Counted from the stretch's first letter, positions 6,457 to 32,000 are shown. The stretch is DNA of 32,000 nt from Vibrio cholerae ATCC 14035 (GCF_000621645.1 NZ_JHXR01000014.1:30001-62000), one strand, 5' to 3'. Program-made: numbers and translations. The notes: a model not told the origin generated them from the sequence alone.

Positions 6457-6530
6457 GGCGCGTTGGCAGAGTGGCCATGCAGCGGATTGCAAATCCGTGA
6501 ACCTCGGTTCGACTCCGGGACGCGCCTCCA
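6457..6530 (+). tRNA. tRNA-Cys (anticodon GCA), second identical copy
   Basis: The 74 nt are identical to 1237..1310. It lies 24 nt downstream of tRNA-Leu. Confidence 0.95.
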
Positions 6531-10560: not shown

Positions 10561-10653
10561 TACTGTCCTCCCTAAACCACGGCTTTCAGCAGTGGTGATT
10601 GTTTAATATTTCCGTCCAGCTTTTGGCTTCAAGTAGGAAGTGGCTATTCACGC

Positions 10654-11895
10654 TCAAGCACGAGGCTCATCGATTAGCGCCATCGCCAGTAAACTCACCG
10701 GATGAATGGTTTCCAAATGCGCGTTTTCTTCGATTTGCCACTTACAGGTTTCGCAATCGGTCACCGCATAATCGGCATCAGAGGTTTGAATCGCATCAAA
10801 CAGATGCGAACCAATTTTCTTCGATACCTCGTAGTTCTCTTCTTTAAAACCATAGGTTCCGGCTAGGCCACAACACTCACTGTCGAGCACCACCAGCTCT
10901 AAGCCGGGGATCATTTTCAGCAGCTCAATCGTAAACATCACATTACCACTGCGCTCTAAATGGCAAGGGGTGTGATACACCACTTTTTTGTGCACGGGTT
11001 TCATTTTCGGCGCGTTACCGCTCATAAACTCTTTGAGCAGAAAACGCGTGACGTAATGGATTTGATCCACCACTTGGCTGTTATCTACGCCTAGCACATG
11101 CGGGTATTCTTGCTGCAAGGTAAACGAGCAGGTGGAAGAGGTGGAAAGCACCGGCGCATGGTAATCATTGACCATAGCCGTAAGGTGTTTGACGTTGTGC
11201 AGCGCGTTTTTACGCGCTTTGTTGTGAAAACCATTTGCGATCAGGGGCACACCGCAACATTTTTCGCTATCAAGCAAACGCACGCCTATGTTCATCGCGT
11301 TCATCACTCGCACAAAGTCTTTACCCAGTTGCGGGTGGTTATAGTTCACGTAGCAACCATGGAAATAAGCCACTTGTCTTTGGTAGAGCGGCTGGCTGGT
11401 GCAGTTTTGTTTAAACCAGCGGCGGAACGTGCCGTGCGAATATTTGGGCAAGGTTTTATGGTCATGCACGCCAATGGTTTTGTGCATCAGCTTTTTCACC
11501 AATGGCAACGAGGTTGCGGCGTTGACGAGTGGCGCAAACGGTGTGGCGATCGAGCCAAATAAGTCGGTGTGGCTGAGTACAAAATCACGCACCAACTTAG
11601 GGTTAAGTGGTTTTTTGCCGTATTTGCCACGCGCCACGGCGATCATATCGCCAATTTTGACGCCTGAAGGGCAGGCGGTTTCACAGCGTTTGCAGTTGGT
11701 ACACAGCTTGAGCGCGTCATCATAGTATTCAGCACTTTTGATCCGTAAACGCTCACCATCTGGGCCACACTGTTTGGGGCCGGGATAGTTTGGGTTGGCT
11801 TTGGCAACGGGGCAATACACAGTGCACACCGTGCATTTGATGCATTGATCAAAGGTGGTATTTTGCGGTGCAGAGTGAATAAAGGCATGGTTCAT
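10654..11895 (-). CDS. glpC: Anaerobic glycerol-3-phosphate dehydrogenase subunit C
   Basis: 413 aa. It has two ferredoxin-type clusters (CIKCTVCTVYCP, CTNCKRCETACP) plus CCG cysteine-rich repeats (EKCCGVP, SECCGLAG). The start overlaps the glpB stop (ATGA at 11892-11895). Confidence 0.93.
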   Translation of the reverse strand: MNHAFIHSAPQNTTFDQCIKCTVCTVYCPVAKANPNYPGPKQCGPDGERLRIKSAEYYDDALKLCTNCKRCETACPSGVKIGDMIAVARGKYGKKPLNPKLVRDFVLSHTDLFGSIATPFAPLVNAATSLPLVKKLMHKTIGVHDHKTLPKYSHGTFRRWFKQNCTSQPLYQRQVAYFHGCYVNYNHPQLGKDFVRVMNAMNIGVRLLDSEKCCGVPLIANGFHNKARKNALHNVKHLTAMVNDYHAPVLSTSSTCSFTLQQEYPHVLGVDNSQVVDQIHYVTRFLLKEFMSGNAPKMKPVHKKVVYHTPCHLERSGNVMFTIELLKMIPGLELVVLDSECCGLAGTYGFKEENYEVSKKIGSHLFDAIQTSDADYAVTDCETCKWQIEENAHLETIHPVSLLAMALIDEPRA

Positions 11896-13202
11896 AGCAG
11901 CACCTCCGGTTGTTTGGTTTGCGCATAAGTCGCAAGGATCTGTTCTACGGCATGATAAGCGGTCGCAATCGCTACGCCTCCGCCACAGCCTTCAAACACG
12001 GGGTCGTACCCACTGAGCATTGCGCCGCAACACCATAGATTGTCAATGGTTTTGCCTTGGCGTGACGGATGCAAATTGGCATCGGTAATGACGCCGAAAG
12101 TCATAAACGGGTGTGATTGTGCGGCGATAAATTGGGCATGTCGCCACTGAGCGCGGTCAGGGTTTTGCTGGACGTCCAGCGCAAAGGTCGGCTCTTGAAT
12201 CGCATGTTGTGAGGCTTGTAATCCTTGGCTGAAGTAACTGCCGGTCGCCATCACATAGTGCTCAGCACTGATTGGGAAATCGCGCAGATTTTGAGTATGA
12301 ATAGCGGTGAGGCGAGAGCCTGCAAAATCGCCACCAATCACTTTGTCTCCCTTGAGTTGCACGCCGCCACCTTGGATGAAACTACGATGCAGCGCTTCTT
12401 CAATGCGGATCCCGAGCAGTGATGGGGGCATGGTTGGCACTTCATGAAAGCGCAGTTGGGTTACCTGTTGGAGTTTGGTCATCAAATGCAAACCATCACC
12501 GTTGCCCATGATGGCAGGCATGATCACCAGGTCATCTGGACGCGCAACGCGCATCAGTTGGTCGCACAATGCATTCCACGCCGATTCTTGGCGCAGCAAA
12601 CGCGCAATATCAATCGAGCGCAGCTCGTTAGGATTACGTCTGAACCCTTCAAAGCCGGGGATAGAAACATTCACCGTGAGCATCGGCGTGTTAGCAAGCT
12701 CAGGGCGCTGAGCGAGGTTATCACGCAGCATCGCAGGTTGAAAATCGCGATAGCCGTCAATCGCAACAATCACGATGCGTGAAAAGTCGGCATTGCCGCG
12801 ATAAGGGTAAACAAAAGGCTGCGACAGCCAAGTATTTTTTAGAGTACCAAGTGGGGTAATGCGCCAGTGGTTGGCCCCATCGGGTTCGTGATGCAAAGGG
12901 ACGTGTGCACTGTCTAAAGTACGTTTGAACCACATCAAACCTTTTTCGCTGTTTTTGCGTCCGACTTTGCTGTAAGGGTGCTCTGGTACTTGCTGTTGTA
13001 AAGCTGAAAGTGCGTCAAACGGCTGATTCACTACGCTGCCATCCGGCAAACGGCCAAGCACATCAATCGAGCCGGAAGAAAAATGCAGCGCACTTTGCCC
13101 TTGGTTGATTAACACCACTTTTTTTCCGGCTTGCAGTGCGCGCAGGGCGGCGCTGTATCCGGCAATTCCGCCACCGATGACGGCCACATCATAATGCATC
13201 AT
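11892..13202 (-). CDS. glpB: Anaerobic glycerol-3-phosphate dehydrogenase subunit B
   Basis: 436 aa. The N-terminal FAD dinucleotide fold is DVAVIGGGIAGYSAAL. It holds the middle position of a glpABC operon, with 4-nt overlaps at both junctions. Confidence 0.93.
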   Translation of the reverse strand: MMHYDVAVIGGGIAGYSAALRALQAGKKVVLINQGQSALHFSSGSIDVLGRLPDGSVVNQPFDALSALQQQVPEHPYSKVGRKNSEKGLMWFKRTLDSAHVPLHHEPDGANHWRITPLGTLKNTWLSQPFVYPYRGNADFSRIVIVAIDGYRDFQPAMLRDNLAQRPELANTPMLTVNVSIPGFEGFRRNPNELRSIDIARLLRQESAWNALCDQLMRVARPDDLVIMPAIMGNGDGLHLMTKLQQVTQLRFHEVPTMPPSLLGIRIEEALHRSFIQGGGVQLKGDKVIGGDFAGSRLTAIHTQNLRDFPISAEHYVMATGSYFSQGLQASQHAIQEPTFALDVQQNPDRAQWRHAQFIAAQSHPFMTFGVITDANLHPSRQGKTIDNLWCCGAMLSGYDPVFEGCGGGVAIATAYHAVEQILATYAQTKQPEVLL

Positions 13203-14899: not shown

Positions 14900-15063
14900 A
14901 TGTTCGTTGTTTTGCTCACAAAAGCGCGAACGAGCATTAAGTGGCAGGTGGAAGTGAATGAAATCTTTCAGTGGTGTAATTTTATGCGATTCACTTATTG
15001 ATGATTAACACTGTTTGTAACATATATGACACATTTAATGTTCGTTTGAGTGAATATGTTCGT
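14900..15063 (+). promoter_or_regulatory. Repeated ATGTTCGT boxes in the glpA/glpF divergent control region (candidate GlpR operator half-sites)
   Basis: Exact ATGTTCGT occurs at 14900-14907, 15038-15045 and 15056-15063, all in the same orientation. Related inverted CGAAC-containing elements lie at 14927-14937 (CGAACGAGCAT) and 15242-15248 (CGAACAC). The TGTTCG core resembles the half-site I recall for E. coli GlpR operators. Confidence 0.45.
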
Positions 15064-15496
15064 GACTTAATAAGGGAATATCTGTCGATTTTTCAGCGCG
15101 ATCGTGCGTTAAATCTGGCTTGTACTCATGATTTAGTGATTGCTAAACCAAAAGATTAGCCATTTTCAGACACTGGAGAAGAGAGAGAAAAAAGATGCGT
15201 TGTTTAACAAAAAACGAATTTGTTAATAACAAAATTGTGCTCGAACACTCATTAATTGCGGTCGTTTGTTTTCGAGGTGATATTTTTGTGCCAGATTCAC
15301 CGCGAACAGTGAGATTGTTCATCCAATAACGGCTATTTCATGATGCGATTAGAGCCGACGGGTGTAGGCGGCGACTACAATATAAACCGAAAAATAGTGA
15401 GACTGCAGATATTTATGCTGACTTTCTAAGTATAACGGGTGTGGATGGCTGTTCGATACGGCTCTGGTAGCAAGATAACAAAAAGGACTCTGAACT

Positions 15497-16351
15497 ATGA
15501 ACCAAACAAAGCAACATACTCTGCTCGGGCAGTGTATCGCCGAGTTTATCGGTACAGGATTACTGATTTTCTTCGGCGTCGGCTGCGTGGCCGCACTCGT
15601 TTTAGCAGGTGCTCAATTCGGACAGTGGGAAATCAGCATTGTCTGGGGTTTTGGCGTATCGATTGCCATTTATTGTACGGCTGGGGTTTCTGGCGCGCAC
15701 ATTAACCCTGCCGTCACTATCGCTCTGGCCGCTTTCCACGGTTTTGATAAAGCGAAAGTATTACCTTACATCATTTCGCAAGTGGCTGGTGCGTTTTGTG
15801 CGGCGGCACTGGTCTACAGCTTGTACAGCAACCTTTTTACCGACTACGAAATCGCCCACAATTTTGTACGTAGCAGCCAAGAAGCCTTAGCGACTGCGGG
15901 GATCTTCTCAACTTATCCGCATGCTTCTCTCTCTTTTATGGGAGCCATGGCCGTTGAGTTCACCATTACAGCGGTACTGATGTTCGCGATTTTGGCGTTG
16001 GGTGATGAAAACAATGGCGCGCATCGCAATGCGATGAACCCCTTGCTAATTGGTATTTTGATTGCGGTGATTGGTGGCTCATTAGGCCCATTGACGGGAT
16101 TTGCCATGAACCCTGCGCGTGATTTCGGTCCTAAACTGTTTGCCTACTTCGCGGGATGGGATTATGCCCTAACTGGCGCAAAAGAGATCCCTTACTTCAT
16201 CGTACCGATTGTGGCTCCGATTCTGGGCGCATGTTTTGGCGCGTGGGCATATCCAAAGTTTATCGCGGCTTATCTGCCAAAAACGGGTACGGGTTGCACT
16301 ATTCCGAACCAATGTGACACGGCAGAAGAGAGTGAAGAAGCGCGCGCATAG
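15497..16351 (+). CDS. glpF: Glycerol uptake facilitator (aquaglyceroporin)
   Basis: 284 aa with 6 TM segments. Both MIP-family NPA boxes are present (SGAHINPAVT and GFAMNPARD). Confidence 0.93.
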   Translation: MNQTKQHTLLGQCIAEFIGTGLLIFFGVGCVAALVLAGAQFGQWEISIVWGFGVSIAIYCTAGVSGAHINPAVTIALAAFHGFDKAKVLPYIISQVAGAFCAAALVYSLYSNLFTDYEIAHNFVRSSQEALATAGIFSTYPHASLSFMGAMAVEFTITAVLMFAILALGDENNGAHRNAMNPLLIGILIAVIGGSLGPLTGFAMNPARDFGPKLFAYFAGWDYALTGAKEIPYFIVPIVAPILGACFGAWAYPKFIAAYLPKTGTGCTIPNQCDTAEESEEARA

Positions 16352-17998: not shown

Positions 17999-18035
17999 TT
18001 TTTCTCTCACCATAAAATTTTTCTTTCTTCATAAC

Positions 18036-18068
18036 AATAATGCCCGGGTAAACCGGGCATTATTTTTT
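18036..18068 (+). terminator. Rho-independent terminator after glpK (may also serve the convergent small membrane gene)
   Basis: Stem AATAATGCCCGG pairs with CCGGGCATTATT (18036-18064) around loop GTAAA. A TTTTTT run follows at 18062-18067. Confidence 0.8.
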
Positions 18069-18077
18069 CAGGGAAAA

Positions 18078-18329
18078 CTAAGCCGCGCTCGAAGACGCGT
18101 CAGGCTTTTTTTCCTGTTGCATTTTCACCAAGAAGTAGACGTTGACGCAGGCAATAAAACCGTTAGTTACGACGACAGGCCAAGCATCAATCATCAAACC
18201 GTATGCAGTAAACAGTGCACAACCAATAAAATTCAGTACACGCAGTCTGACGATGTCTTTCATTGTCAATGATACCGCCACCATGATCGATGCCGCGTAT
18301 CCTAAAATTTCAACCATACTCATATCCAT
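18078..18329 (-). CDS. Small 3-TM inner-membrane protein (YgjV / SemiSWEET-like triple-helix-bundle pattern)
   Basis: 83 aa with three hydrophobic helices. The pattern LGYAAS...(TM1)...F.AYG....WP....N(TM2-3) resembles YgjV-repeat and SemiSWEET-type proteins, but the PQ motif is absent. The family call is tentative. Confidence 0.55.
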   Translation of the reverse strand: MDMSMVEILGYAASIMVAVSLTMKDIVRLRVLNFIGCALFTAYGLMIDAWPVVVTNGFIACVNVYFLVKMQQEKKPDASSSAA

Positions 18330-18707
18330 TATTTGACCCTCGTTAATAGTGTGGACAGTGTCAGTGTCGTGCCAATCTTCTCATCGTGAGAGTAGTGAGG
18401 AAGCTCCATGCCTCGAATGGTTTCTTGGTGAATTTGCCATGGGTTGAGTATGGCTAAACCATCAAGAAAAGAGGCCGCTCTATCGCTATTTTAGTCAAAC
18501 CTGCGATTTTCAGGGCACTCTGTTGATTCACTAATGACACTATAGCAATGGAAAATATGTGACGAAAGGCTCGGAATTTTGTTCGGTGAAGGTTAGCGAT
18601 TACGCAAACGTTTAATGTCGATCACGTTCAGTTTTTGCAAGGCAGACATTGATAGAAACGTTAACGCTTTTACCTTAACTCGAATGAGAGAAACGGATTG
18701 GCGCGCT

Positions 18708-18732
18708 AAAGAAAACCCACCTTGCGGTGGGT
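18708..18732 (-). terminator. Rho-independent terminator after yeeX
   Basis: On the minus strand the sequence reads ACCCACCGCAAGGTGGGT followed by TTTCTTT. It lies 10 nt after the yeeX stop. Confidence 0.7.
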
Positions 18733-18741
18733 CTGGAATCA

Positions 18742-19062
18742 TTAGGCTTTTTTGCCTTGAGTCATCTGCTTATCGTGCTCAGTTAAGTCTTTGATACGAC
18801 GGCTGATATCACGGCGCTCTTTAGAAATTTCCGCGCTCTTGATGATGTGGTCATCGACACGATCTTCGTAGTCAGACTTCATGTTTTTGATGATGCCGAG
18901 AATCTCTTCGTGGCTCATGTTTGGCTTGATGTAGTCAAGCAGGTTTACCAGCAGTTCAACACGCTTACGGTTATCACGTACTTTTTTCTCGTTATCATCG
19001 AGTTCGCGTTGAAGTTTATTTTTGCGACGAGCCAAGCTCACAATTTCAAATACGCTGTTCAT
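18742..19062 (-). CDS. yeeX: DUF496/UPF0265 protein YeeX
   Basis: 106 aa. [58 protein letters not shown] matches E. coli YeeX almost block-for-block from memory. Confidence 0.9.
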
Positions 19063-19249
19063 AGGTTCCTTTTCCTACTTTTAATGCAACTGCGAAGATT
19101 AAAACACAACAATTCTTTTCATAACAGACTTAAGATCAATATGCGGCTTATCTTGACCAATAAATCGCCATTCAAAGCGCGAGCCAATTGTACATCAGAA
19201 ATAATGCGCTATATCATGTGCGCCATTCATGAAGACATGATGAGCAACC

Positions 19250-19447
19250 ATGCGTAATTCTGAGATTTTGGTTCCCACACCGCCGCTGCAAACTGAGCTT
19301 GATGCTGTCGCAATCAAACTGCGAGAGGCTTACATTAAAGAGCGTCAGCAGCTTGAGTTGACCGAAATTGAATTAAACCGCGCCAGAATCATTATGATTG
19401 ATGAGAATGGCAAAATGATTCGGTTACCTCTGTTAACTGAGCATTAA
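19250..19447 (+). CDS. Hypothetical small protein (65 aa)
   Basis: The only evidence is an intact ORF in an otherwise unassigned 426-nt gap, co-oriented with yceH and ending 41 nt before it. There is no convincing SD and no recognisable motif. Confidence 0.3.
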   Translation: MRNSEILVPTPPLQTELDAVAIKLREAYIKERQQLELTEIELNRARIIMIDENGKMIRLPLLTEH

Positions 19448-19488
19448 ATACCGACTGCGGGTTCGCCCGCCAGCAGAAGGACAGCACG

Positions 19489-20139
19489 ATGAATATTCAA
19501 CTCTCCCCACTCGAAGCCCGTGTAATTGGCTGTTTAATTGAAAAAGAAGTCACCACGCCCGATCACTATCCACTGACACTCAATAGCTTAACCACCGCTT
19601 GTAACCAAAAAAGCAATCGCGAACCGGTACTCAACTTGAGTGAAGCGGAAGTGCAAGACACGGTGGAAGGGTTAATCGCTCGTCGCCTTGTAAGCGATGA
19701 AAGCAGCTTTAATAGCCGTACCAGCAAATACCAACACCGCTTCTGTAATACAGAGTTTGGCGATCTCAAACTCAATCAACAAGAACTCGGACTCATCTGC
19801 TGCTTATTGCTGCGCGGTGCGCAAACCCCCGGAGAGCTGCGCACGCGAACCAATCGACTCTGTACATTTACCGATGTGAAAGAGACTGAAGCGGTACTTG
19901 AGCGCTTAGCGAATCGTGATTCAGGTGCGCTGGTGGTGAAATTGCCGCGTGAGCCGGGTAAGCGTGAGTCCCGCTACCATCATCTGTTTTGCGGTGAAGT
20001 GGATATGGCGGCTTTTGCCACGAGCTCAGACAATGAAGCGAACGCCTCTTCTCAATACGCTGAGCTAGAACAAGAAGTGGCAGCACTGCGTGAAGAAGTG
20101 GCCGAGTTGCGCGCACTGATTGAACGACATTTAGGCTAA
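19489..20139 (+). CDS. yceH: DUF480/UPF0502 protein YceH
   Basis: 216 aa. [20 protein letters not shown]...TACNQK.NREPV.NLSE.EV and [24 protein letters not shown] and REPGKRE.RY.HLF match E. coli YceH from memory. Confidence 0.9.
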
Positions 20140-23029: not shown

Positions 23030-25603
23030 TTGAACATTCGACCTAGCCAAATCAAGCATAAACAGCGCATCGCTTCATTTATCACCCATGCTGTCGTGGT
23101 GGTGATGGGCGTTCTGATCGTCAGTGTATTATTCCAAAGTTACCAGATCAGTAGCCGCTTGATGTCTCAAGAAAGGCAACGCACCTCAGTTCAAACCTCC
23201 AGCTTGATTCAAAGTTTGTTTGATTTTCGTCTTGCGGCACTGCGAATTCACCAGGACAGCACAGCCAAGAACGCCAGTTTAATCAACGCACTTGTCAGCC
23301 GAGATTCGAGTCGGCTGGATGAATTCTTTTCGAGTGTCGATGAACTTGAACTTTCTAATGCGCCAGATCTGCGTTTTATCTCCAGTCACGACAACATCTT
23401 GTGGGATGATGGCAACGCCTCTTTTTACGGCATTGCCCAGCAAGAGCTGAATAAGCTTATCCGCAGAGTGGCGATCAGTGGCAATTGGCACTTGGTTCAA
23501 ACGCCCAGCGAGGGAAAATCAGTCCATATTTTGATGCGTCGTTCATCACTGATTGAAGCGGGAACCGGGCAGGTTGTTGGGTATCTGTATGTAGGCATCG
23601 TACTCAATGATAACTTTGCGCTGTTGGAAAATATCCGCAGTGGCAGTAACTCAGAAAACCTAGTCCTTGCCGTCGATACTACGCCGCTGGTTTCTACCTT
23701 GAAAGGCAATGAACCTTATTCGCTGGACTATGTGGTGCACAGCGCCAAAGATGCTATGCGCGACAGCTTTATTGTTGGGCAAACCTTCTTAGAAGTGGAA
23801 AGTGTACCGACCTATCTGTGCGTCTACTCGATTCAGACCAACCAAAATGTGCTCACCCTGCGGGATAATTTCTATTTTTGGATGGCGTTTGCGCTGATCA
23901 GTATGATCGGTGTTTCCATCGCGTCACGCTGGTGGCTACAAAAACGCATTCAGCGTGAAATTGAAACCTTGATGAATTACACCCATAAATTGATGGATCT
24001 GGATACGAAAAGTGAGTTTATCGGTTCAAAAATTTATGAGTTCGACTATTTTGGGCGAACGTTGGAACAATCATTCCGTCGTCTCGCCAATAAAGAAAAG
24101 CAGTTTGAAGATCTGTTTAACTTTGCGCTCTCACCGACCATGCTTTGGAATACCTCTGGTCGGCTGATCCGCATGAACCCCTCAGCGCAAATCCAGTTTT
24201 TGCGCGAAGATGCGCAAAACCATTTCTTATTTGAGATTCTTGAACGCCAACTGTTGCCGACCATCACTAAGGCGGCACAGGGCGATAATCCGAGTGACGT
24301 CACAACCGAAGTGGATGGTCGTGTGTACCGCTGGAACCTTTCGCCGATCATGGTGGAAGGGCAGATCATTTCCATCATTACTCAGGGGCAAGATATCACC
24401 ACCATCGCGGAAGCGGAGAAACAAAGCCAAGCCGCAAGGCGCGAAGCGGAAGAGTCGGCACGGGTCAGAGCCGAGTTTTTGGCCAAAATGAGTCACGAAT
24501 TGCGCACGCCGCTCAATGGTGTGCTCGGTGTTTCCCAACTGCTAAAACGGACCCCACTCAATGATGAACAGCGCGAACACGTGGCTGTGTTATGCAGCAG
24601 TGGTGAACATTTGCTCGCGGTGCTGAATGACATCTTGGATTTTTCACGCTTAGAGCAGGGCAAATTCCGTATTCAAAAGAATGAGTTTCGCCTTAAAGAG
24701 TTGGTGTGCGCGATTGACCGCATTTATCGACCTTTATGTAATGAAAAAGGCTTGGAACTGGTGGTGAATTCCAATATCACCACCGCAGCGATTGTGCGCA
24801 GCGATCAGATCCGGATTAACCAAATCTTGTTCAATTTGCTCAATAACGCGATCAAGTTTACTCACCAAGGTTCGATACGTGTCGAATTGCAATTAATTGA
24901 AGGCGATCCGTTAGCTCAACTGGTGATTCAAGTCGTCGATACGGGGATTGGTATCCGCGAACAAGATTTAACGGTGATTTTTGAACCTTTCATGCAAGCT
25001 GAATCGACCACCACTCGAGAGTACGGCGGAAGTGGTTTAGGCTTAACGATTGTGCACAGCTTAGTGGAAATGCTCAGTGGTCAACTGCACGTCAGCTCCG
25101 AGTATGGCATTGGTACACGTTTTGAAATTCAGTTACCGATTGAGCTGGTAGAAAAACCGGATGCGCCGCAGCAGTTGTTACCAGCTCCTGATCCTCAACC
25201 GTTATTTGATAAAACTCTGCGTGTACTGTTGGTGGAGGATAACCACACCAATGCCTTTATTGCTCAAGCATTCTGTCGTAAATATGGCTTAGATGTGAGT
25301 TGGGTAACCGATGGACTACAGGCGATTGAAGAGCTCAAAATACATGACTACGACTTAGTGCTGATGGATAACCAGTTACCCTATTTGGATGGCGTTGAGA
25401 CCACGCGCACCATCAAAAAGGTGCTGCATCTTCCGGTGGTGGTGTATGCCTGTACTGCGGATGGCTTAGAAGAAACACGGCAAGCATTTTTCCATGCGGG
25501 CGCGGAATATGTGTTAGTGAAGCCACTGAAAGAGCAGACTTTGCATAAAGCGCTGGAGCATTTCAAACATCATCATGGCCAAAAAAACGCTGGCTTAAAT
25601 TGA
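23030..25603 (+). CDS. luxQ: AI-2 sensor hybrid histidine kinase/phosphatase LuxQ
   Basis: 857 aa. The start is TTG at 23030, with GAGG 9 nt upstream, 17 nt after luxP. A TM helix and a periplasmic tandem-PAS region are followed by the H-box FLAKMSHELRTPLNG, HATPase motifs (NLLNNAIKFT, DTGIGI, GGSGLGLTIV) and a receiver domain (LLVEDNHTNAF..., DLVLMDNQLP). The sequence is colinear with V. harveyi LuxQ from memory. Confidence 0.95.
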   Translation: MNIRPSQIKHKQRIASFITHAVVVVMGVLIVSVLFQSYQISSRLMSQERQRTSVQTSSLIQSLFDFRLAALRIHQDSTAKNASLINALVSRDSSRLDEFFSSVDELELSNAPDLRFISSHDNILWDDGNASFYGIAQQELNKLIRRVAISGNWHLVQTPSEGKSVHILMRRSSLIEAGTGQVVGYLYVGIVLNDNFALLENIRSGSNSENLVLAVDTTPLVSTLKGNEPYSLDYVVHSAKDAMRDSFIVGQTFLEVESVPTYLCVYSIQTNQNVLTLRDNFYFWMAFALISMIGVSIASRWWLQKRIQREIETLMNYTHKLMDLDTKSEFIGSKIYEFDYFGRTLEQSFRRLANKEKQFEDLFNFALSPTMLWNTSGRLIRMNPSAQIQFLREDAQNHFLFEILERQLLPTITKAAQGDNPSDVTTEVDGRVYRWNLSPIMVEGQIISIITQGQDITTIAEAEKQSQAARREAEESARVRAEFLAKMSHELRTPLNGVLGVSQLLKRTPLNDEQREHVAVLCSSGEHLLAVLNDILDFSRLEQGKFRIQKNEFRLKELVCAIDRIYRPLCNEKGLELVVNSNITTAAIVRSDQIRINQILFNLLNNAIKFTHQGSIRVELQLIEGDPLAQLVIQVVDTGIGIREQDLTVIFEPFMQAESTTTREYGGSGLGLTIVHSLVEMLSGQLHVSSEYGIGTRFEIQLPIELVEKPDAPQQLLPAPDPQPLFDKTLRVLLVEDNHTNAFIAQAFCRKYGLDVSWVTDGLQAIEELKIHDYDLVLMDNQLPYLDGVETTRTIKKVLHLPVVVYACTADGLEETRQAFFHAGAEYVLVKPLKEQTLHKALEHFKHHHGQKNAGLN

Positions 25604-26260
25604 GCCAGCGAGAAAAGCGTGTTCGAGAACCTGTTTTTTTAGCGTTTCCGTCAAAGTGATCGGTTGTTCAAACTGAATGCCGATCAAATGCCCATTCGAT
25701 TTACGCCGAATATTGACGATATGGCTTTTGAGCCGCTTCGGCAGAAAGGGGTCGAGTTCACTATTAATTCGCACTTTAGAGCCCATATGGAGCTCATTTT
25801 CACCACGAATAAACACCCCGCAACCTGAAATGGAAAAGTCGACTAACGTGCCGGCATAGTTTTTGTTGTCTTCACTCACTTCAGCCGGGATCGCCACTTT
25901 ATAACGTTCATGGCTACGAATCGCTTTGGTCGCAAAATGTTTGGGTGGTCGAATAAACAAAACACAGAAAGGCTTAGTGCTGGGCTGCAAAATGGAACTT
26001 TGAAACGCCAAAATATGCCCCAATTCAGTGTCGCACATACCGCGTAAGACGATCGCGACATTCTTGAGTTTACGCATCACCAAGGCTTGATGCGCCTTGA
26101 GCGGCAGATCCAGCACAATATATTGCTCAATTTTGTGGCCAATCAGGGTGGTGTGGAACGCATAAGTATCTTCAGGGCCGAAATGAATTTCAGCCGATAC
26201 CTTCATCCCCGGTTTTAAAAGCAACGCCAGTTTATTCAGATCTTCAGAACCGACAGCCAT
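25595..26260 (-). CDS. PilZ-domain c-di-GMP binding protein (YcgR-N-like + PilZ; PlzE-like)
   Basis: The ORF spans 25595..26305. I prefer Met at 26260 (MAVGSEDLNKL), with AAGAG upstream. The PilZ motifs RxxxR (RSHER) and D/NxSxxG (DFSISGCG) lie in RSHERYKV...GTLVDFSISGCGVFI. I recall a PilZ gene (plzE) next to luxQ in V. cholerae, but the symbol is unverified. Confidence 0.82.
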   Translation of the reverse strand: MAVGSEDLNKLALLLKPGMKVSAEIHFGPEDTYAFHTTLIGHKIEQYIVLDLPLKAHQALVMRKLKNVAIVLRGMCDTELGHILAFQSSILQPSTKPFCVLFIRPPKHFATKAIRSHERYKVAIPAEVSEDNKNYAGTLVDFSISGCGVFIRGENELHMGSKVRINSELDPFLPKRLKSHIVNIRRKSNGHLIGIQFEQPITLTETLKKQVLEHAFLAGSI

Positions 26261-26503
26261 GCAAAAAACTCTTAACTTGTTTTTATTATTGACAAAGTTA
26301 TACACCGTAACGCGGGGTATTGACTACTTGGATAGAAAGATTCTTGCACTAAGTTGACGAAAACCGCCCCTAGCATGGCCACGGCTATTCACAAACTTCA
26401 AAAATACCAGCGATATAGGATGAAGAGGTGCAGGCGGCACCTCTAAAGGTTGGTATAGCCTTGCTTAAACGGGAACGTTAAGCTGGGGGCTCAAACAGAA
26501 AGC

Positions 26504-27259: not shown

Positions 27260-27658
27260 TTACAGCAGCTCGATATGATCCACTTCAATCTCAGGCGTGC
27301 GGCCGTTTTCAAATTCCCCAAACAGGCGCACTTTGGTTTCTGGCGTGAGCGTTGCGTTCAGGTGAATATCATCATCCAGCTCTACCTGAATTTCGTTGCT
27401 GCCATCAGAGAACATAAAGGTGTCTTTGCGCAGTTGGCGAACCAAATTGCCTTCCACCACGACTTTCTTCTCCATAAATGGGTTGGATGAATCCAGCAGC
27501 GATTGCACCTTCACCACTTCTACAGGGCCTTGGAACTGAACACCTGCTTGAGTTTGGTTGTCGCCAATAAATTTAATGTGTTGCGCGTTATCCGCCGCGA
27601 TAACCAAAGTGGGTGCCAGAATCAGAGCAGAAGTCAGAGCGATAATAGTACGTTTCAT
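27260..27658 (-). CDS. ygiW: YgiW/YdeI-family periplasmic OB-fold (BOF) stress protein
   Basis: 132 aa with the signal peptide MKRTIIALTSALILAPTLVIA. The C-terminal VVVEGNLVRQLRKDTFMFSDGSNEIQVELDDD matches the characteristic 'V.L.G.I......D.Y.F.D..G.I.VEID' pattern of the BOF family. Confidence 0.85.
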   Translation of the reverse strand: MKRTIIALTSALILAPTLVIAADNAQHIKFIGDNQTQAGVQFQGPVEVVKVQSLLDSSNPFMEKKVVVEGNLVRQLRKDTFMFSDGSNEIQVELDDDIHLNATLTPETKVRLFGEFENGRTPEIEVDHIELL

Positions 27659-27859
27659 GGTTTTTCCTTTTTCATCAATGTGTCTCGAAGGAGACTGTTT
27701 GTTGTCTTGATGTGGCTATTAAACGCTATCGGATTTGAACCAATACTGAGGCGACGATTAATATTCGGTTCATTTTACGAGGTTTGATTCACGCAACACT
27801 GCCGGCCCAGTAGCAACCTATACTATGGAGAGAAATGTCATTGTCTGTGGGGTGGAAAG

Positions 27860-28165
27860 ATGCAAAATCGATTTAAGGTTCTGCTAGGCGTGATATTGCT
27901 TTTTCCGATGTTCGCGTTTGCCAAAATCAACATGGCGGAAGTGAATGCCTACGCTTACGAAGGATTGGCCGACATGTGCGCCAATTCTCGCCATATCACT
28001 GGTGAGCAGCAGAAAGAACTGCAAGCGATATATCTACAAATCAAACACACTCGCCAAAAAATCTTACCCGCCAATAACGATTTTGCTCACTACGCCGCCA
28101 AACAGTTATGGGATATTCACACCACTCCGCACTATGAAGAGTGCATTGCTCTCCTCAAAAAATAG
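27860..28165 (+). CDS. Hypothetical small secreted protein (101 aa)
   Basis: The signal-peptide-like N-terminus is MQNRFKVLLGVILLFPMFAFA. The mature part has two Cys and carries no motif I recognise. The gene is divergent from ygiW and is followed by a hairpin at 28198-28217. Confidence 0.55.
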   Translation: MQNRFKVLLGVILLFPMFAFAKINMAEVNAYAYEGLADMCANSRHITGEQQKELQAIYLQIKHTRQKILPANNDFAHYAAKQLWDIHTTPHYEECIALLKK

Positions 28166-28193
28166 TCACAACCAGCCCAACAAAGCCAAAACG

Positions 28194-28217
28194 AAAAAGC
28201 CGCCCCGAAGGGCGGCT
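28194..28217. terminator. GC-rich tetraloop hairpin at the left edge of the AT-rich islet; the U tract is on the minus strand only
   Basis: Stem AGCCGCCC (28198-28205) pairs with GGGCGGCT (28210-28217) around loop CGAA. On the plus strand it is preceded by AAAACGAAAAA, which reads TTTTTCGTTTT after the hairpin on the minus strand. Only GAAAGTG follows it on the plus strand. Confidence 0.6.
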
Positions 28218-28464
28218 GAAAGTGTGCAAGCAAAGGTGTTAAGTTGAACCTGTCGTTCAGCACAAACCTTAGACTGAATAGTTGCGGTGCTCAATCCGGT
28301 CGTGTATAAAACGTGAGGTGCAATGAATTGCTTATGCAATCATCATGACTATAAATTGCATAAGTATTATTGTATGAAGTGATTAGTTGGCTTCTTGCAC
28401 ACTAGTTACTGCTAGGCTGCAATGCCAGCTCATGCGTCATCGTTTGCTACTTTAAGGAGATTAC

Positions 28465-31131
28465 ATGATTGGCTCAATTTGGACTAAATGGGATTTACAT
28501 ATTCATTCTCCATATACACATCAAGCAAACGAATTCGGCAGTACCACAATAGATGAGTTTGTTAATAAGGTGATTTCTTCAAACCTCAGTCTGATTGCTA
28601 TAACTAATTACTTCTTTTTTAAAGAAGATGAACTAGATGAAATTAGGGATAAATTTAAGGAAAAAGGTGCTGAAGTCACGGTTTTAGGTAATCTCGAATT
28701 TCGTATTGACCAACAAAATAAAGAAGGCGAATGGATCAATGTGCATTGTATTTTTTCGGAAAATATTACCACTCGCAAGATAAATACCATTCTGTCTACC
28801 CTCCCAATTTCTAACACCACCGCTGAACGAAAAAGTATTTATTGCTCACAGCTGTCTTTATCTGATGCCCAAACTAAAATTTCTGAAGTGATGGTGAATT
28901 TCGATGGGCTAATTCAGCATTTGAATAGAAACTTAAAATTTGGAGTAGATTTCTTGATTGCTGCCTGTCCAAATGGTTATGGTGGATTTAGACCTGACGT
29001 AACTGAAGGGCGGTCTTTGGCTGCTGCATTAGAAATAGAGAAAAGGTGCCAAATCATACTTGGAAGACCTCAAGATCGGCCGTTTTTTCTGGATCAAAAC
29101 AGATATCAATCTGCTATACAAAAGCCCGTTTTTTTTGCTTCTGACTCCCATAAATTAGAAGAAATTGGAAAAAAATACTCTTGGGTTAAAGCTAAGCCTA
29201 CATTTGAAGGTTTAAGACAAGCCATTATTGAACCAGATTTAAGAGTTCAGCAAACTGACGATTTTGTTGAAAAAACGTATATTAAACCATGGTTTAAATC
29301 GGTTGAACTAGGCGGGAAGGTTTTTGAAGGTGAGGAAATTACTTTCTTAAGTCAGAAAATTCCACTAAACCCCAACCTTATTACGATAATTGGTGGGAGA
29401 GGGACGGGTAAAAGCCTATTTTTAGATGCGATGCACTCAAGGTTTAATCATCGGGCTGAGCACTCTAATGCACGAAAAGTTAGCGGTGAAAGTCTTTGTG
29501 TTGAGTTAGATCAGGGCGATGGAACAGTGCTGAAATTTGATTCTTCGGCAAACACCTATTCCTATTTGCATGTATCACAAGGAGATGTTCAGCATTTTAG
29601 CCAAAAGCCTGATGACTTGAGTGACGAAATCAAAAGAATGCTAGGAATACATGGTATTCAATTTGATTCAGTTGCCAGCTCTGAAATAGTTAACAATTTA
29701 AGCAAGTACCAAACATTCGTTCAATATTGGGAAGATACTGATTCACAAGGGCAGCGAATAAATACACAAGGTTACCAACAAAGTGTTATTGATAGTAACA
29801 CTCAGTTAATTGCTACACTTACTAATCCTCAGAACAAATTACTTATTGAAAGTTATCAGAAAAACTCAAAAAGTATTAATGAGAAGAATAGATTCATTGA
29901 AGAGGCAAGAAATATGGTAGCTTTAATTAATCGTTACGCTACCGAATTAAATCAAAAGATTGCACTCTTAAACTCAAACGCTTGCTCAGTAAATCAGTCA
30001 CCTTTAGTTGATGAGTCTATATTCAAAGATCCAATAAATGAAAATATTAAAAACTGCAAGGATGAAATGGTAATTCTGGAAGATAATAATAAAGAAATAG
30101 CTCTTCAATTTCAGAAGCAAGGCATCAGTCAAGATATTTCATCCCTGCTTGGAAAAGTAACAGAATATCAAAAATCTATAGATCAAGCGTCAGCAAAATT
30201 GGTAGAGATAAATCAGAAAACTTCTGAATATCATGAGTACGTTCAGAAGCGTGGCGAGCTGGCACTTAGCTATAAAAATTACCTAAATAGCCAAAAAGAA
30301 AGTATCGATAATGCATTTCAAAGACTCAAGGTGAAACAGCCGAGTTGGAATGATGAACAAAATGATTTGGTTCAGAATATTCTTGTCGATATAAACATCA
30401 ATGGTAGAGTGGTATTTAATGTAGAGCAGTTTTATGCAGGGATTGAAGAGTGCTTAAATAAAGGTAAGTTTAGGAACACAAGTGAAAAATCCACCTTTGA
30501 AAGGTTGCAAGAAACTTTTTGTGTTAAATCAATCGATGACTTATTCAAGCTTGTGGCAGGTGAAAAAATAATTAACTGTGATGGCACCCCGACAAGTATC
30601 GAAGAGTTTTTTTGGAAACCTGAATATTTTAACAAAGGTGGGCGGTTCGAGCTGCTGAGTTACCTATATATACCTTCAAATATTAGAAAATATCTTTATG
30701 TAAATGCTGACTTCCAATACAAAGGGAAAGAAGTAAATAAACTGTCAGTAGGTCAACGAGGTACTTTTTACGTATGTTTGAAATTAGCTACGGATCCATT
30801 CGGCAGTCCATTTGTCTTTGACCAACCTGAGGATGATCTTGACAACGAGTTTATTATGGCTCAGCTTGTGCCACTATTTAGAAAAATAAAGAAATATCGA
30901 CAAGTAATTATTGTTACTCATAATGCTAATCTGGTCGTTAATACTGACGCTGAGCAAGTTATCGTTGCTGATAATCAGGGCGAAAATATACGTTACAGAG
31001 CTGGTTCTGTTGAAGACGGTAATGTCAAAGATAATTCAGGGATAAGAGCTGATATTTGTAACATTCTGGAAGGCGGGAGTTATGCTTTTGAGAAAAGAGA
31101 GAGAAAATACGGTATCCAAGAATTTGCCTAA
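28465..31131 (+). CDS. PHP phosphoesterase fused to a Rad50/SMC-like split ABC ATPase (888 aa); candidate single-gene anti-phage defence protein (Ppl-like architecture)
   Basis: A strong SD AAGGAGA lies 4 nt before the ATG. PHP ligand motifs are WDLHIH (aa 9-14), H94 and ASDSH (aa 225-229, nt 29137-29151). Walker A is GGRGTGKS (aa 310-317, nt 29392-29415). About 440 aa of K/E/Q/N-rich helical insert follow. The remaining ATPase motifs are signature-like LSVGQRG (aa 760-766, nt 30742-30762), Walker B FVFDQPED (aa 783-790, nt 30811-30834) and IIVTHN (aa 815-820). The gene is markedly AT-rich relative to its flanks. Confidence is high for the CDS and moderate for the function. Confidence 0.85.
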   Translation: MIGSIWTKWDLHIHSPYTHQANEFGSTTIDEFVNKVISSNLSLIAITNYFFFKEDELDEIRDKFKEKGAEVTVLGNLEFRIDQQNKEGEWINVHCIFSENITTRKINTILSTLPISNTTAERKSIYCSQLSLSDAQTKISEVMVNFDGLIQHLNRNLKFGVDFLIAACPNGYGGFRPDVTEGRSLAAALEIEKRCQIILGRPQDRPFFLDQNRYQSAIQKPVFFASDSHKLEEIGKKYSWVKAKPTFEGLRQAIIEPDLRVQQTDDFVEKTYIKPWFKSVELGGKVFEGEEITFLSQKIPLNPNLITIIGGRGTGKSLFLDAMHSRFNHRAEHSNARKVSGESLCVELDQGDGTVLKFDSSANTYSYLHVSQGDVQHFSQKPDDLSDEIKRMLGIHGIQFDSVASSEIVNNLSKYQTFVQYWEDTDSQGQRINTQGYQQSVIDSNTQLIATLTNPQNKLLIESYQKNSKSINEKNRFIEEARNMVALINRYATELNQKIALLNSNACSVNQSPLVDESIFKDPINENIKNCKDEMVILEDNNKEIALQFQKQGISQDISSLLGKVTEYQKSIDQASAKLVEINQKTSEYHEYVQKRGELALSYKNYLNSQKESIDNAFQRLKVKQPSWNDEQNDLVQNILVDININGRVVFNVEQFYAGIEECLNKGKFRNTSEKSTFERLQETFCVKSIDDLFKLVAGEKIINCDGTPTSIEEFFWKPEYFNKGGRFELLSYLYIPSNIRKYLYVNADFQYKGKEVNKLSVGQRGTFYVCLKLATDPFGSPFVFDQPEDDLDNEFIMAQLVPLFRKIKKYRQVIIVTHNANLVVNTDAEQVIVADNQGENIRYRAGSVEDGNVKDNSGIRADICNILEGGSYAFEKRERKYGIQEFA

Positions 31132-31312
31132 CAAGCCACTACACTCGGAAATTTTACTCGCTTTGCTCCCAAAATTCCGGTGAATGGATAGGTAAACCTA
31201 TAGAAATTTTAATCCGAAACTCAAAAATTAGAGTTGGGAGCTTAACACGCTTCTGTCCATAAACGCGTCATCCCAAATCAGCGATAAACTCCAAGTGACT
31301 ACAAATCTAGTT

Positions 31313-31731
31313 CCCTCCCCTTTTAGGGGAGGGTTAGGGTGGGGTATTTTAGTTTTCGCTGAAGTTTGTATTTTCCACGTTTAACACATCTGGTGCGAAA
31401 TACCCCCTCCCAACCTCCCCCTATAAGGGAGAGGGGCGTGAAACATTTGAGTTTTGTTGAAGTATTTATTTCCCACTATTTAACTCATCTGGCGTGAAAT
31501 ACCCCCTCCCAACCTCCCCCTATAAGGGGGAGGAGCGTGAAACATTTGAGTTTCGCCGAAGTATTTATTTTCAACTATTTAACTCATCTGGCGCGAAATA
31601 CCCCCACCCGTCCTCCCCTATAAGGGGGAGGGGGCTGTAATATTTGAGTGTCGCTGAAATATTTATTTTCCACGTTTAATACATCTGGCGCGAAATACCC
31701 CCTCCCAACCTCCCCTTATAAGGGGGAGGGG
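31313..31731 (+). repeat. Tandem array of about 99-bp repeats (3 full units, 1 truncated, plus a leading variant unit), each carrying a C-tract/G-tract palindrome
   Basis: Unit starts (CATCTGG) are at 31387, 31486, 31585 and 31682, giving periods of 99, 99 and 97. Each unit has GAAATACCCCCTCCCAA followed by the hairpin CCTCCCCC-TATAA-GGGGGAGG. A leading element at 31313-31350 has the hairpin CCCTCCCC-TTTT-(A)GGGGAGGG with the arm inverted (TTAGGGTGGGGTATTTT). Confidence 0.9.
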
Positions 31732-31904
31732 TAACGAAGCCTGTACAAAACGCTTTCCCATTAAAAACAGCAAAGTACCAGACGCAGACCGTATTGAGGT
31801 ATGCTAACGCCTCTTGGTTTTCGAGGGGCGAGGTTGCTCCTCTGGTTAACGTGATTGCGGAGTGGGCGACACTGGCGCACTCCAATCCATCATTAAGTGA
31901 TTGC

Positions 31905-32000
31905 ATGAAAAAATGGTTAATGGTGCAAGGCACCACCTCAGATGCGGGAAAAAGCGTGTTGGTTGCCGGCTTGTGCCGAGTATTGGCGCGTCGCGGCATT
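31905..32000 (+). CDS. cobQ: Cobyric acid synthase CobQ/CbiP, N-terminal 32 codons (continues beyond the window)
   Basis: ATG at 31905 is followed by [32 protein letters not shown], which is open to the window end. [17 protein letters not shown] is the conserved CobQ N-terminal P-loop-like motif. The ORF is absent from the supplied track because it is short and open-ended. Confidence 0.8.

Follow-up and report, generated by a model that had tools for sequence, protein, structure and literature searches.

The single-gene anti-phage system Ppl of Escherichia coli is described as a 3'-5' exonuclease of single-stranded DNA (ssDNA) that is inhibited by nucleoside triphosphates (NTPs) bound to its PHP (polymerase and histidinol phosphatase) and NTPase domains, and activated by nucleotide depletion and 3'-OH ends (PMC12904381). 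It confers protection from T7 and is countered by gp130 of Bas63 (PMC11482910). The gene analyzed in this work lies in an AT-rich islet of Vibrio cholerae ATCC 14035 (NZ_JHXR01000014.1:30001-62000, a stretch of 32,000 nucleotides (nt) hereafter called the window) and encodes an 888-amino-acid (aa) protein of the TrlF family. Like Ppl, which resides in P2-like prophage hotspots and is represented by the models NF042955 (NCBIfam) and PDLC02208 (PADLOC), it is a single gene whose product, some 880-890 aa long, carries a PHP domain at the N-terminus and an ABC-type NTPase at the C-terminus. Homology to Ppl is detectable in the 888-aa protein (81 bits with the PADLOC model and 107.4 bits with the NCBIfam model, where the best stretch comprises residues 755-878), but it falls far under the curated NCBIfam cut-off of 1000 bits, and the protein belongs to a separate NCBIfam equivalog, TrlF.

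That equivalog also includes TrlF of Photorhabdus laumondii, encoded in the temperature-restriction locus (TRL) of this organism (PMC7554251). Both trlF and the islet gene are variably present among strains and lie between conserved genes, but the islet carries neither trlG (AlbA_2/HATPase_c_4) nor trlR, and the Photorhabdus phenotype maps to trlG. A broader resemblance links the 888-aa protein to SbcCD/Mre11-Rad50 and to JetC of Wadjet, all of which combine a split ABC head, a coiled-coil insertion and coupling to a metal-dependent phosphoesterase. In the 888-aa protein, however, a PHP domain within the same polypeptide supplies the nuclease, whereas the calcineurin-like Mre11/SbcD and the Toprim protein JetD are partners of their ATPases; its coiled coil is also short (~240 residues) in comparison with SbcCD, Rad50 and JetC, and Gln replaces Glu in its Walker B motif. 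As for the genomic setting, defence hotspots between core genes are already well known. The core defence hotspots (cDHS) of Pseudomonas aeruginosa, which are devoid of mobility genes (PMC10250203), and the V. cholerae locus are alike in their conserved core flanks, their diverse defence systems and their lack of an integrase. For chromosome 2, 'hotspot regions ... near VCA0735' were noted in a survey of the mobile elements of V. cholerae published in 2025, which describes islands (PMC12082036). VCA0735 is the PilZ gene at 25595-26305 of the window, 2 kb from the locus studied here; the two sites may be the same, and the present locus differs from the islands of that survey by its fixed junctions and its cassettes of 2-5.4 kb.

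We consider it likely that V. cholerae chromosome 2 has a hotspot for defence cassettes, that the islet is one of its alleles, and that this allele holds a single-gene defence nuclease of the TrlF family. The hotspot, or slot, is bounded on one side by a 101-aa gene that neighbours ygiW/sipA and on the other by an array of 99-bp repeats that lies upstream of cobQ. Its alleles, which differ between strains, are unrelated and mostly AT-rich immune systems, among which the TrlF allele is a naked 2.8-kb unit with one gene. The encoded protein most likely acts as a stand-alone DNA-degrading defence enzyme; whereas the composition and limits of the islet, the polymorphism of the slot and the family, folds and conserved motifs of the protein are shown below, its defence role, substrate and trigger are inferred. 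The components of the locus, in the coordinates of the window, are the following.

27860..28165, + strand: left anchor, 101-aa gene with a signal-peptide-like N-terminus; found in every V. cholerae slot allele and missing at the corresponding locus of V. mimicus and V. furnissii
28198..28316, no strand: hairpin (28198-28217) and spacer of ~100 nt, which all slot alleles share as far as the left breakpoint
28344..31242, no strand: variable cassette, the TrlF allele of a multi-allelic, probable defence slot (loss and return of blastn homology; G+C z = -8)
28465..31131, + strand: TrlF-family gene, 888 aa, PHP phosphoesterase fused to an SMC/Rad50-like ABC ATPase (NCBIfam, Pfam)
31243..31345, no strand: right junction, beginning TTTTGTCCATAAACGCGTYATCCC (blastn identity of 86-92% in 12 other loci)
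31346..31731, no strand: tandem repeat array of 99-bp units, 3.9 copies, 85% identity (Tandem Repeats Finder), between the slot and cobQ

Support for a multi-allelic slot comes from a survey in which proteins identical or closely similar to those of the flanks were looked up in public assemblies and the cargo systems named by PADLOC. Eleven cargo types, 2.0-5.4 kb in length and with a G+C content of 32-42%, occupy the space between the same junctions and between flanks that are 92-100% identical in V. cholerae. They are given here with the loci (L numbers) in which they occur.

TrlF gene: L011, L013, L017, L084
Hachiman HamA/HamB: L012, L016 (PADLOC, 398 and 996 bits)
Split AAA_15/AAA_21 ATPase with a 219-aa protein: L015
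Class-1 OLD nuclease, with or without a Tn5-like insertion sequence (IS): L018-L020, L087 (PADLOC, 215 bits)
SIR2_2 protein (609 aa), 207-aa protein and LmuB-like SMC ATPase (723 aa): L080, L081, L083, L085 (LmuB model, 64 bits)
Retron I-B reverse transcriptase and ATPase-Toprim, plus PD-Lambda-3_B: L086, L093-L098 (PADLOC, 307, 759 and 441 bits)
PrrC-like ATPase, PDC-S06: L089 (PADLOC, 932 bits)
IS-disrupted AAA_13: L082
KAP NTPase (824 aa): L092, L099, L100
Cap4-nuclease Lamassu (Cap4-nuclease and a 549-aa protein): L103
GAPS4 PDDEXK: L104

The SIR2 trio is the most frequent cargo among the contigs read and, judging from gene counts, probably corresponds to VCA0728-VCA0730 of seventh-pandemic strains; a search of the literature for the locus tags VCA0728-VCA0731 returned a single incidental mention. 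In the index consulted, 10,933 blocks hold an identical YgiW, 201 the identical TrlF protein and 295 the 101-aa allele of the window. Index blocks are not genomes and yield only rough allele frequencies, but on these figures (201 against 10,933) the TrlF allele is a minority in the databases. The exact 888-aa protein was found on 24 of the contigs read, including the V. cholerae chromosome-2 records CP000626.1 and CP001236.1, which we take to be assemblies of the classical strain O395.

Several side observations pertain to this set of loci. The SIR2 trio (L080, 2175-6794) has the appearance of a Lamassu-like SIR2 system and is scarcely recognised by standard models, as its LmuB score illustrates. 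Insertion sequences (Tn5-like, DDE_Tnp_1) are located between the right junction and the array (L018-L020, about 10600-12100) or inside the cargo (L082, 4144-6323), and the right flank of L018 is rearranged, with FecCD ABC transporter genes where cobQ would be expected. At about 1932-7342 of L088 the cargo region is a run of N (G+C 0.006), which shows that the public data are masked in part. The representative V. cholerae genome does not appear among the genome-contig matches for the TrlF-family gene, which may reflect either absence of the gene or masking.

Comparison with related species shows that the slot is itself a gain. In V. mimicus and V. furnissii, whose YgiW proteins are 92% and 63% identical to that of the window, ygiW and cobQ are separated by just 165-178 nt; since cobQ stands directly beside ygiW, the slot is absent from both species. 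V. mimicus DNA matches the window as far as 27776 and resumes its match at 31917, with ~80 nt in between and no 99-bp array, and V. cholerae has thus gained ~4.1 kb (27777-31916) with respect to its sister species. Besides the slot, the 101-aa gene, the repeat array and the cobQ leader belong to this gain, which extends beyond the islet. In vibrios further removed, homologues of the 101-aa protein (55-59% identity) occur in unrelated contexts. An earlier note on this DNA, drawn up from the sequence alone, had read the islet as cargo in a variable hotspot that other defence genes might also occupy, and both parts of that reading are supported, with at least ten other cassettes at the slot in V. 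cholerae; nor does the gene sit at this position throughout Vibrio, as these cassettes and the two species without a slot attest.

The same note had deduced a horizontally acquired gene from a drop in G+C content, and its six hand counts (36.7, 40.0, 26.7 and 35.0% in the gene; 43.3 and 53.3% in the flanks) were all reproduced. The islet (28344-31242) has a G+C content of 35.9%, as opposed to 48.1% for the remaining window, and stands well apart (z = -8.0) from 2,545 equal-size segments elsewhere in the window, which average 48.3% (standard deviation 1.5, minimum 45.5). In 500-nt steps, the G+C fraction is 0.33-0.39 across 28501-31000 and 0.43-0.54 nearly everywhere else. Codon usage agrees: G+C at third codon positions (GC3) is 0.292 in gene 28465-31131 against 0.517 +/- 0.044 in 25 other genes of the window (z = -5.1), and the codon-adaptation index, computed with the other window genes as reference set, is 0.618 against 0.716 +/- 0.028 (z = -3.5). 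The comparison of G+C and codon usage that the note had proposed therefore separates both islet and gene strongly from their surroundings. Its limits for the islet (28320-31312) come within about 70 nt of those set by blastn and by alignments with V. cholerae loci carrying alternative cargo, which place the left breakpoint at 28316-28344 and the return of homology on the right at 31243-31251, and the G+C drop sets in within the 28301-28400 bin, close to where the note had put it. At the left edge of the TrlF allele a further 60-80 nt are strongly diverged yet alignable, with similarity fading to about 28395.

The description of the islet as a single-gene unit held as well. Gene 28465-31131, on the + strand, is its only open reading frame (ORF) longer than 70 aa; the remaining ORFs of at least 50 aa in 28166-31312 are fragments of 57-70 aa, either antisense within the gene or overlapping the left flank, and hence no partner gene was found. 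Neither the islet nor its neighbouring genes include an integrase, a transposase or any other mobility gene. The window has three tRNAs only, none within 21 kb of the islet (the nearest is at 6457-6530). A repeat finder applied to 28150-31400 returned only two-copy families of 10-25 nt and 69-100% identity, short chance matches none of which bracket the islet as terminal direct or inverted repeats, so the earlier failure to see convincing flanking repeats was justified. The longest words shared by both sides, GCGTCATC (at 28434 and 31265, with four occurrences in the window) and CTAGTT (at 28402 and 31307), were considered as attachment (att) sites and rejected, since the other slot alleles carry GCGTTATC and CCAGTT at the right-hand sites. 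An integrative genomic island or prophage was likewise rejected, given the lack of mobility genes, of attL/attR repeats beyond chance and of a nearby tRNA.

Model scores place the product in the TrlF family: the 888-aa protein matches NCBIfam NF045780 (TrlF family AAA-like ATPase) with 566.7 bits (cut-off 350), end to end (residues 3-883 on profile positions 2-944 of 944), while its score with the Spaf_1101 model (161 bits) is below the cut-off of 475. Pfam matches are to PHP_C (22.2 bits, cut-off 21.3), PHP, SMC_N, AAA_21 and AAA_29. The motifs below were traced in an end-to-end alignment of the protein with 13 homologues (14 sequences, down to 52% identity).

28465..29274, + strand: PHP domain, residues 1-270 (fold and invariant residues)
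29392..29415, + strand: Walker A motif or P-loop, GGRGTGKS, residues 310-317 (invariant in the alignment; AAA_29 covers residues 293-324)
29662..30384, + strand: long helical (coiled-coil) insertion splitting the ATPase head, about residues 400-640 (AlphaFold model)
30742..30843, + strand: ABC signature LSVGQRG (residues 760-766) and Walker B/D-loop FVFDQPEDDLD (residues 783-793), invariant in the alignment

A model of residues 1-275 was obtained with a predicted local distance difference test score (pLDDT) of 82.8 and a predicted template modelling score of 0.86, and its top Foldseek matches in the PDB are the PHP domains of RNase AM (7ug9, 9etk), PolC and Pol III alpha (E values of 8e-7 to 1e-5). 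The invariant residues H12, H14, E78, H94, H152, D227 and H229 are presumably the HxH...E...H...H...DxH metal ligands of PHP enzymes. The full-length AlphaFold model (pLDDT 77.9) matches the heads of SMC, JetC, RecN and Rad50 with their coiled coils (E values of 2e-9 to 1e-5). Its coiled-coil helices (402-422, 435-503, 518-551 and 558-622) belong to the ~240 helical residues that separate Walker A from the signature motif, Walker B, D-loop and H-loop, the last of which is also present in the alignment. A sequence search of the PDB for solved relatives returned coiled-coil noise only, with a match to the kinetochore protein MCM22 at an E value of 0.006. Gln787, invariant in all 14 sequences, takes the position of the catalytic Glu of ABC ATPases, and the DQPED motif recurs in a distant copy from a Yersinia phage (LIIDQPEDNLD) that was found by tblastn and not by motif. 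By eye, the SbcC-like neighbour of a TrlF-family gene reads LFIDEGFGSLD at Walker B. By analogy with Ppl, the ATPase/coiled-coil part would sense the nucleotide state and/or the DNA ends of an invader, and this sensing would license the PHP domain to degrade DNA, alone and without a partner protein. It is tempting to speculate that Gln787 fits a head that senses, rather than burns, nucleotide.

The contexts in which the family occurs speak for a role in defence. Across many phyla, 29 of 55 full-length loci are stand-alone, with no same-strand ORF within 150 nt, and this is the commonest state of the family, as it is in the islet. Clustering of 532 neighbouring ORFs from 59 loci revealed no conserved partner, since no cluster is present in more than 8 loci. 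The frequent neighbour clusters are restriction-modification subunits (hsdS in 8 loci, hsdR in 6, hsdM in 5 and type ISP in 5); further coupled or adjacent genes encode MmeI-type enzymes, a ResIII helicase, an SbcC-like protein and integrases, and ORFs with reverse-transcriptase motifs, as judged from their sequence, lie beside some TrlF loci. In the distant loci L039, L042, L045, L046, L052, L054, L058 and L064 (Chromatiales, Thiomicrospira, Fibrobacterota and an archaeon) the gene is found inside type I restriction-modification operons beside hsdS, an arrangement that resembles that of PrrC in the prr hsd locus.

The spread of the gene among hosts supports the view that the islet gene was, as its composition suggests, horizontally acquired, the conclusion reached in the earlier note. 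Of its 734 relatives at an E value of 1e-5 or below, those in Oceanobacter, Pseudoalteromonas and V. cincinnatiensis share 81-82% aa identity with it, those in Photobacterium leiognathi and Shewanella baltica 80% and that in Halomonas 79%, whereas the V. fortis and V. parahaemolyticus copies share only 54%; with 79-82% identity outside Vibrio against 54% in these two species, the relatives are incongruent with the core phylogeny. In all hosts examined the gene has a G+C content of 34-36%, while the host flanks range from 40 to 64% (64% at the Aeromonas locus). A copy with a 93%-identical protein lies in an unrelated setting, beside HNH and DUF5677 genes on a contig whose remaining DNA has 54% G+C, and its nucleotide match (93.8%) is confined to 28419-31199 of the window, that is, to the ORF plus 46 and 68 nt. 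The V. cincinnatiensis copy adjoins genes for a tyrosine integrase and RadC. Full-length relatives are present on 114 plasmid records; the gene is solo on Aliivibrio wodanis pAWOD_2 and on Yersinia ruckeri pYR4, where it adjoins an annotated Abi gene. Finally, the P2-like Yersinia phage vB_YenM_42.18 (Peduoviridae) carries a TrlF-family gene (465 bits, cut-off 350) between gpA and gpQ (OM046624.1, 8621-11239; L109, 1844-4462), annotated as 'chromosome partition protein Smc'. We take this gpA-gpQ position of P2 to be the hotspot in which Ppl was found, and hence to be shared by Ppl and this member of the TrlF family.

A number of points weigh against a Ppl-like defence nuclease exchanged among strains. 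The similarity of the 888-aa protein to Ppl, whose model cut-off it misses, is detected mainly in the C-terminal ~130 residues, as is its similarity to the TrlF copy of the phage. Because Gln787 replaces the catalytic Glu of Walker B, the ATPase may bind nucleotide but hardly hydrolyse it, and a mechanism like that of Ppl is not guaranteed. No sigma-70-like promoter was detected upstream of gene 28465-31131. In the Photorhabdus trl locus, which contains the founding member of the family, all selected mutations fell in trlG and none in trlF, to which no phenotype was mapped (PMC7554251); that paper was the only mention of TrlF in the searched literature, which contained neither an experiment linking any TrlF-family protein to phage or plasmid defence nor a functional study of this NCBIfam-named family as an immune gene. 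Lastly, natural transformation is a plausible candidate for the means of cassette swapping, and the identical junctions of many unrelated cargoes could point to an unrecognised site-specific mechanism.

Among the alternatives to be weighed, the identity of the target deserves attention first. The gene might act against plasmids, or be an abortive or selfish element, with a nuclease directed at plasmids or at the host and not at phage. V. cholerae carries SMC-like plasmid-elimination modules (DdmABC), the best structural matches of the 888-aa protein are SMC-like heads such as JetC, and many of its relatives reside on conjugative plasmids. Ppl, on the other hand, acts on phages. Our data do not separate plasmid from phage targets, and we regard this alternative as unlikely, though better placed than those that follow.

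A second alternative concerns the movement of the cassette and not its function. The identity profile of the flanks argues for homologous exchange: far from the slot they are 98-99.5% identical between alleles, but the 500 nt adjoining the cassette are only 92-97% identical on the left, where the 101-aa gene lies, and 88-91% identical on the right, where the array lies, and the alleles of the 101-aa protein (92-97% aa identity) co-vary with cargo type. Both features form the pattern expected of old cassette alleles exchanged by crossovers in their flanks, as the earlier note had suspected. Hence, given also the lack of mobility genes, the most likely mode of cassette swapping is recombination of incoming DNA through the conserved flanks, for which natural transformation would be the obvious route in V. 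cholerae. An unrecognised site-specific mechanism, whether integron-like or operating through the 99-bp repeats, would instead account for unrelated cargoes with a common left junction and a right junction that is the same to within 8 nt, for a mobile TrlF unit consisting of the ORF and about 50-70 nt per side, and for the variable array directly beside the slot. It is nonetheless quite improbable, since there is no recombinase nearby, the cassette has no terminal direct or inverted repeats, and the divergence of the flanks rises toward the cassette, just as homologous exchange predicts. An integron-type mechanism, in particular, was tried and rejected, as no attC-like hairpin is present at either cassette end and no recombinase lies nearby: ssDNA folds of 31120-31250 with unpaired ends have energies of -13 and -13.6 kcal/mol on the two strands (z = -1.4 and -1.2), and z-scores over both cassette ends range from -1.4 to +1.0.

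It is less probable still that the gene is the remnant of an incomplete TRL system (trlR-trlF-trlG) that, without TrlG, is non-functional or has no part in defence. The family takes its name from the three-gene operon of Photorhabdus, where TrlG carries the phenotype (PMC7554251), and both trlG and trlR are missing from the islet and its vicinity. A decaying remnant, however, is at odds with an intact, full-length ORF that keeps all its motifs, with the identical protein in 201 index blocks, and with a family in which 29 of 55 loci are stand-alone, no partner cluster is conserved and plasmid and phage copies are solo. Least probable of all is a role in housekeeping DNA repair, in which the product would process DNA ends in the manner of SbcCD or RecN and the low G+C content of the gene would be dictated by protein composition. 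Several members do bear the source name 'DNA repair protein', the fold resembles RecN, Rad50 and SMC heads, and a nuclease fused to an SMC-like ATPase follows the logic of SbcCD. Yet unrelated defence systems take the place of the gene in most of the V. cholerae contigs read, sister species lack it at the locus, its distribution is patchy, with copies on plasmids and in a phage hotspot, and amino-acid composition does not explain its GC3 of 0.29.

Our preferred reading thus remains that of a defence-cassette slot holding, in this allele, a single-gene TrlF nuclease. A bolder extension of it, to which we assign a low probability, would make TrlF a distinct class of single-polypeptide immune nucleases, in which a naturally 'E-to-Q' SMC-like head, with DQPED as its Walker B across the family, latches ATP or another NTP instead of cycling and serves as a nucleotide-pool or DNA-end sensor gating a PHP exonuclease, and would in addition regard the slot of V. 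cholerae, its junctions fixed and a variable 99-bp array beside it, as a dedicated cassette-exchange platform distinct from integrons. In more general terms, the analysis reveals in V. cholerae a compact, cleanly bounded defence slot with an allele that varies by strain, and such differences could add to strain-specific susceptibility to phages and plasmids. The TrlF family, widespread and already annotated, offers a testable single-gene defence candidate related to Ppl, and the slot provides a convenient natural system for the study of defence-cassette turnover without mobility genes.

The surroundings of the islet complete this picture. The window matches V. cholerae chromosome 2, and the genes follow in the order luxP, luxQ, the PilZ gene, a gene for an outer-membrane protein, ygiW, the 101-aa gene, the islet, the 99-bp array, cobQ, modABC and the HMG-CoA reductase gene. 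The luxQ product matches the NCBIfam model LuxQ_Vibrio with 1268 bits, and ygiW corresponds to sipA/VCA0732 (PMC6370654). An Rfam scan of 27600-32000 yielded nothing over threshold, the best score being that of Ysr49 (21 bits against a gathering score of 95). The right junction TTTTGTCCATAAACGCGTYATCCC is shared by all alignable slot alleles; in the IS-disrupted one (L082) no match to it was found. Each unit of the 99-bp array, which has no Rfam match, bears a G+C-rich hairpin (CCTCCCCCTATAAGGGGGAGG), and the number of copies varies among strains, so that the right junction and the cobQ leader are 195-682 nt apart. Elsewhere in the window, AT-rich patches occur at 15001-15500 (G+C 0.38) and at 18001-19500 (0.42-0.44), the latter without a convincing long ORF. 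The hairpin at 28198-28217 that the earlier note had pointed out does exist as a terminator-like site. Its score is that of an intrinsic terminator acting on the minus strand, where its T-run lies, whereas the 101-aa gene beside it is encoded on the plus strand, and the region (28186-28316) could accommodate a bidirectional terminator or a small minus-strand RNA.

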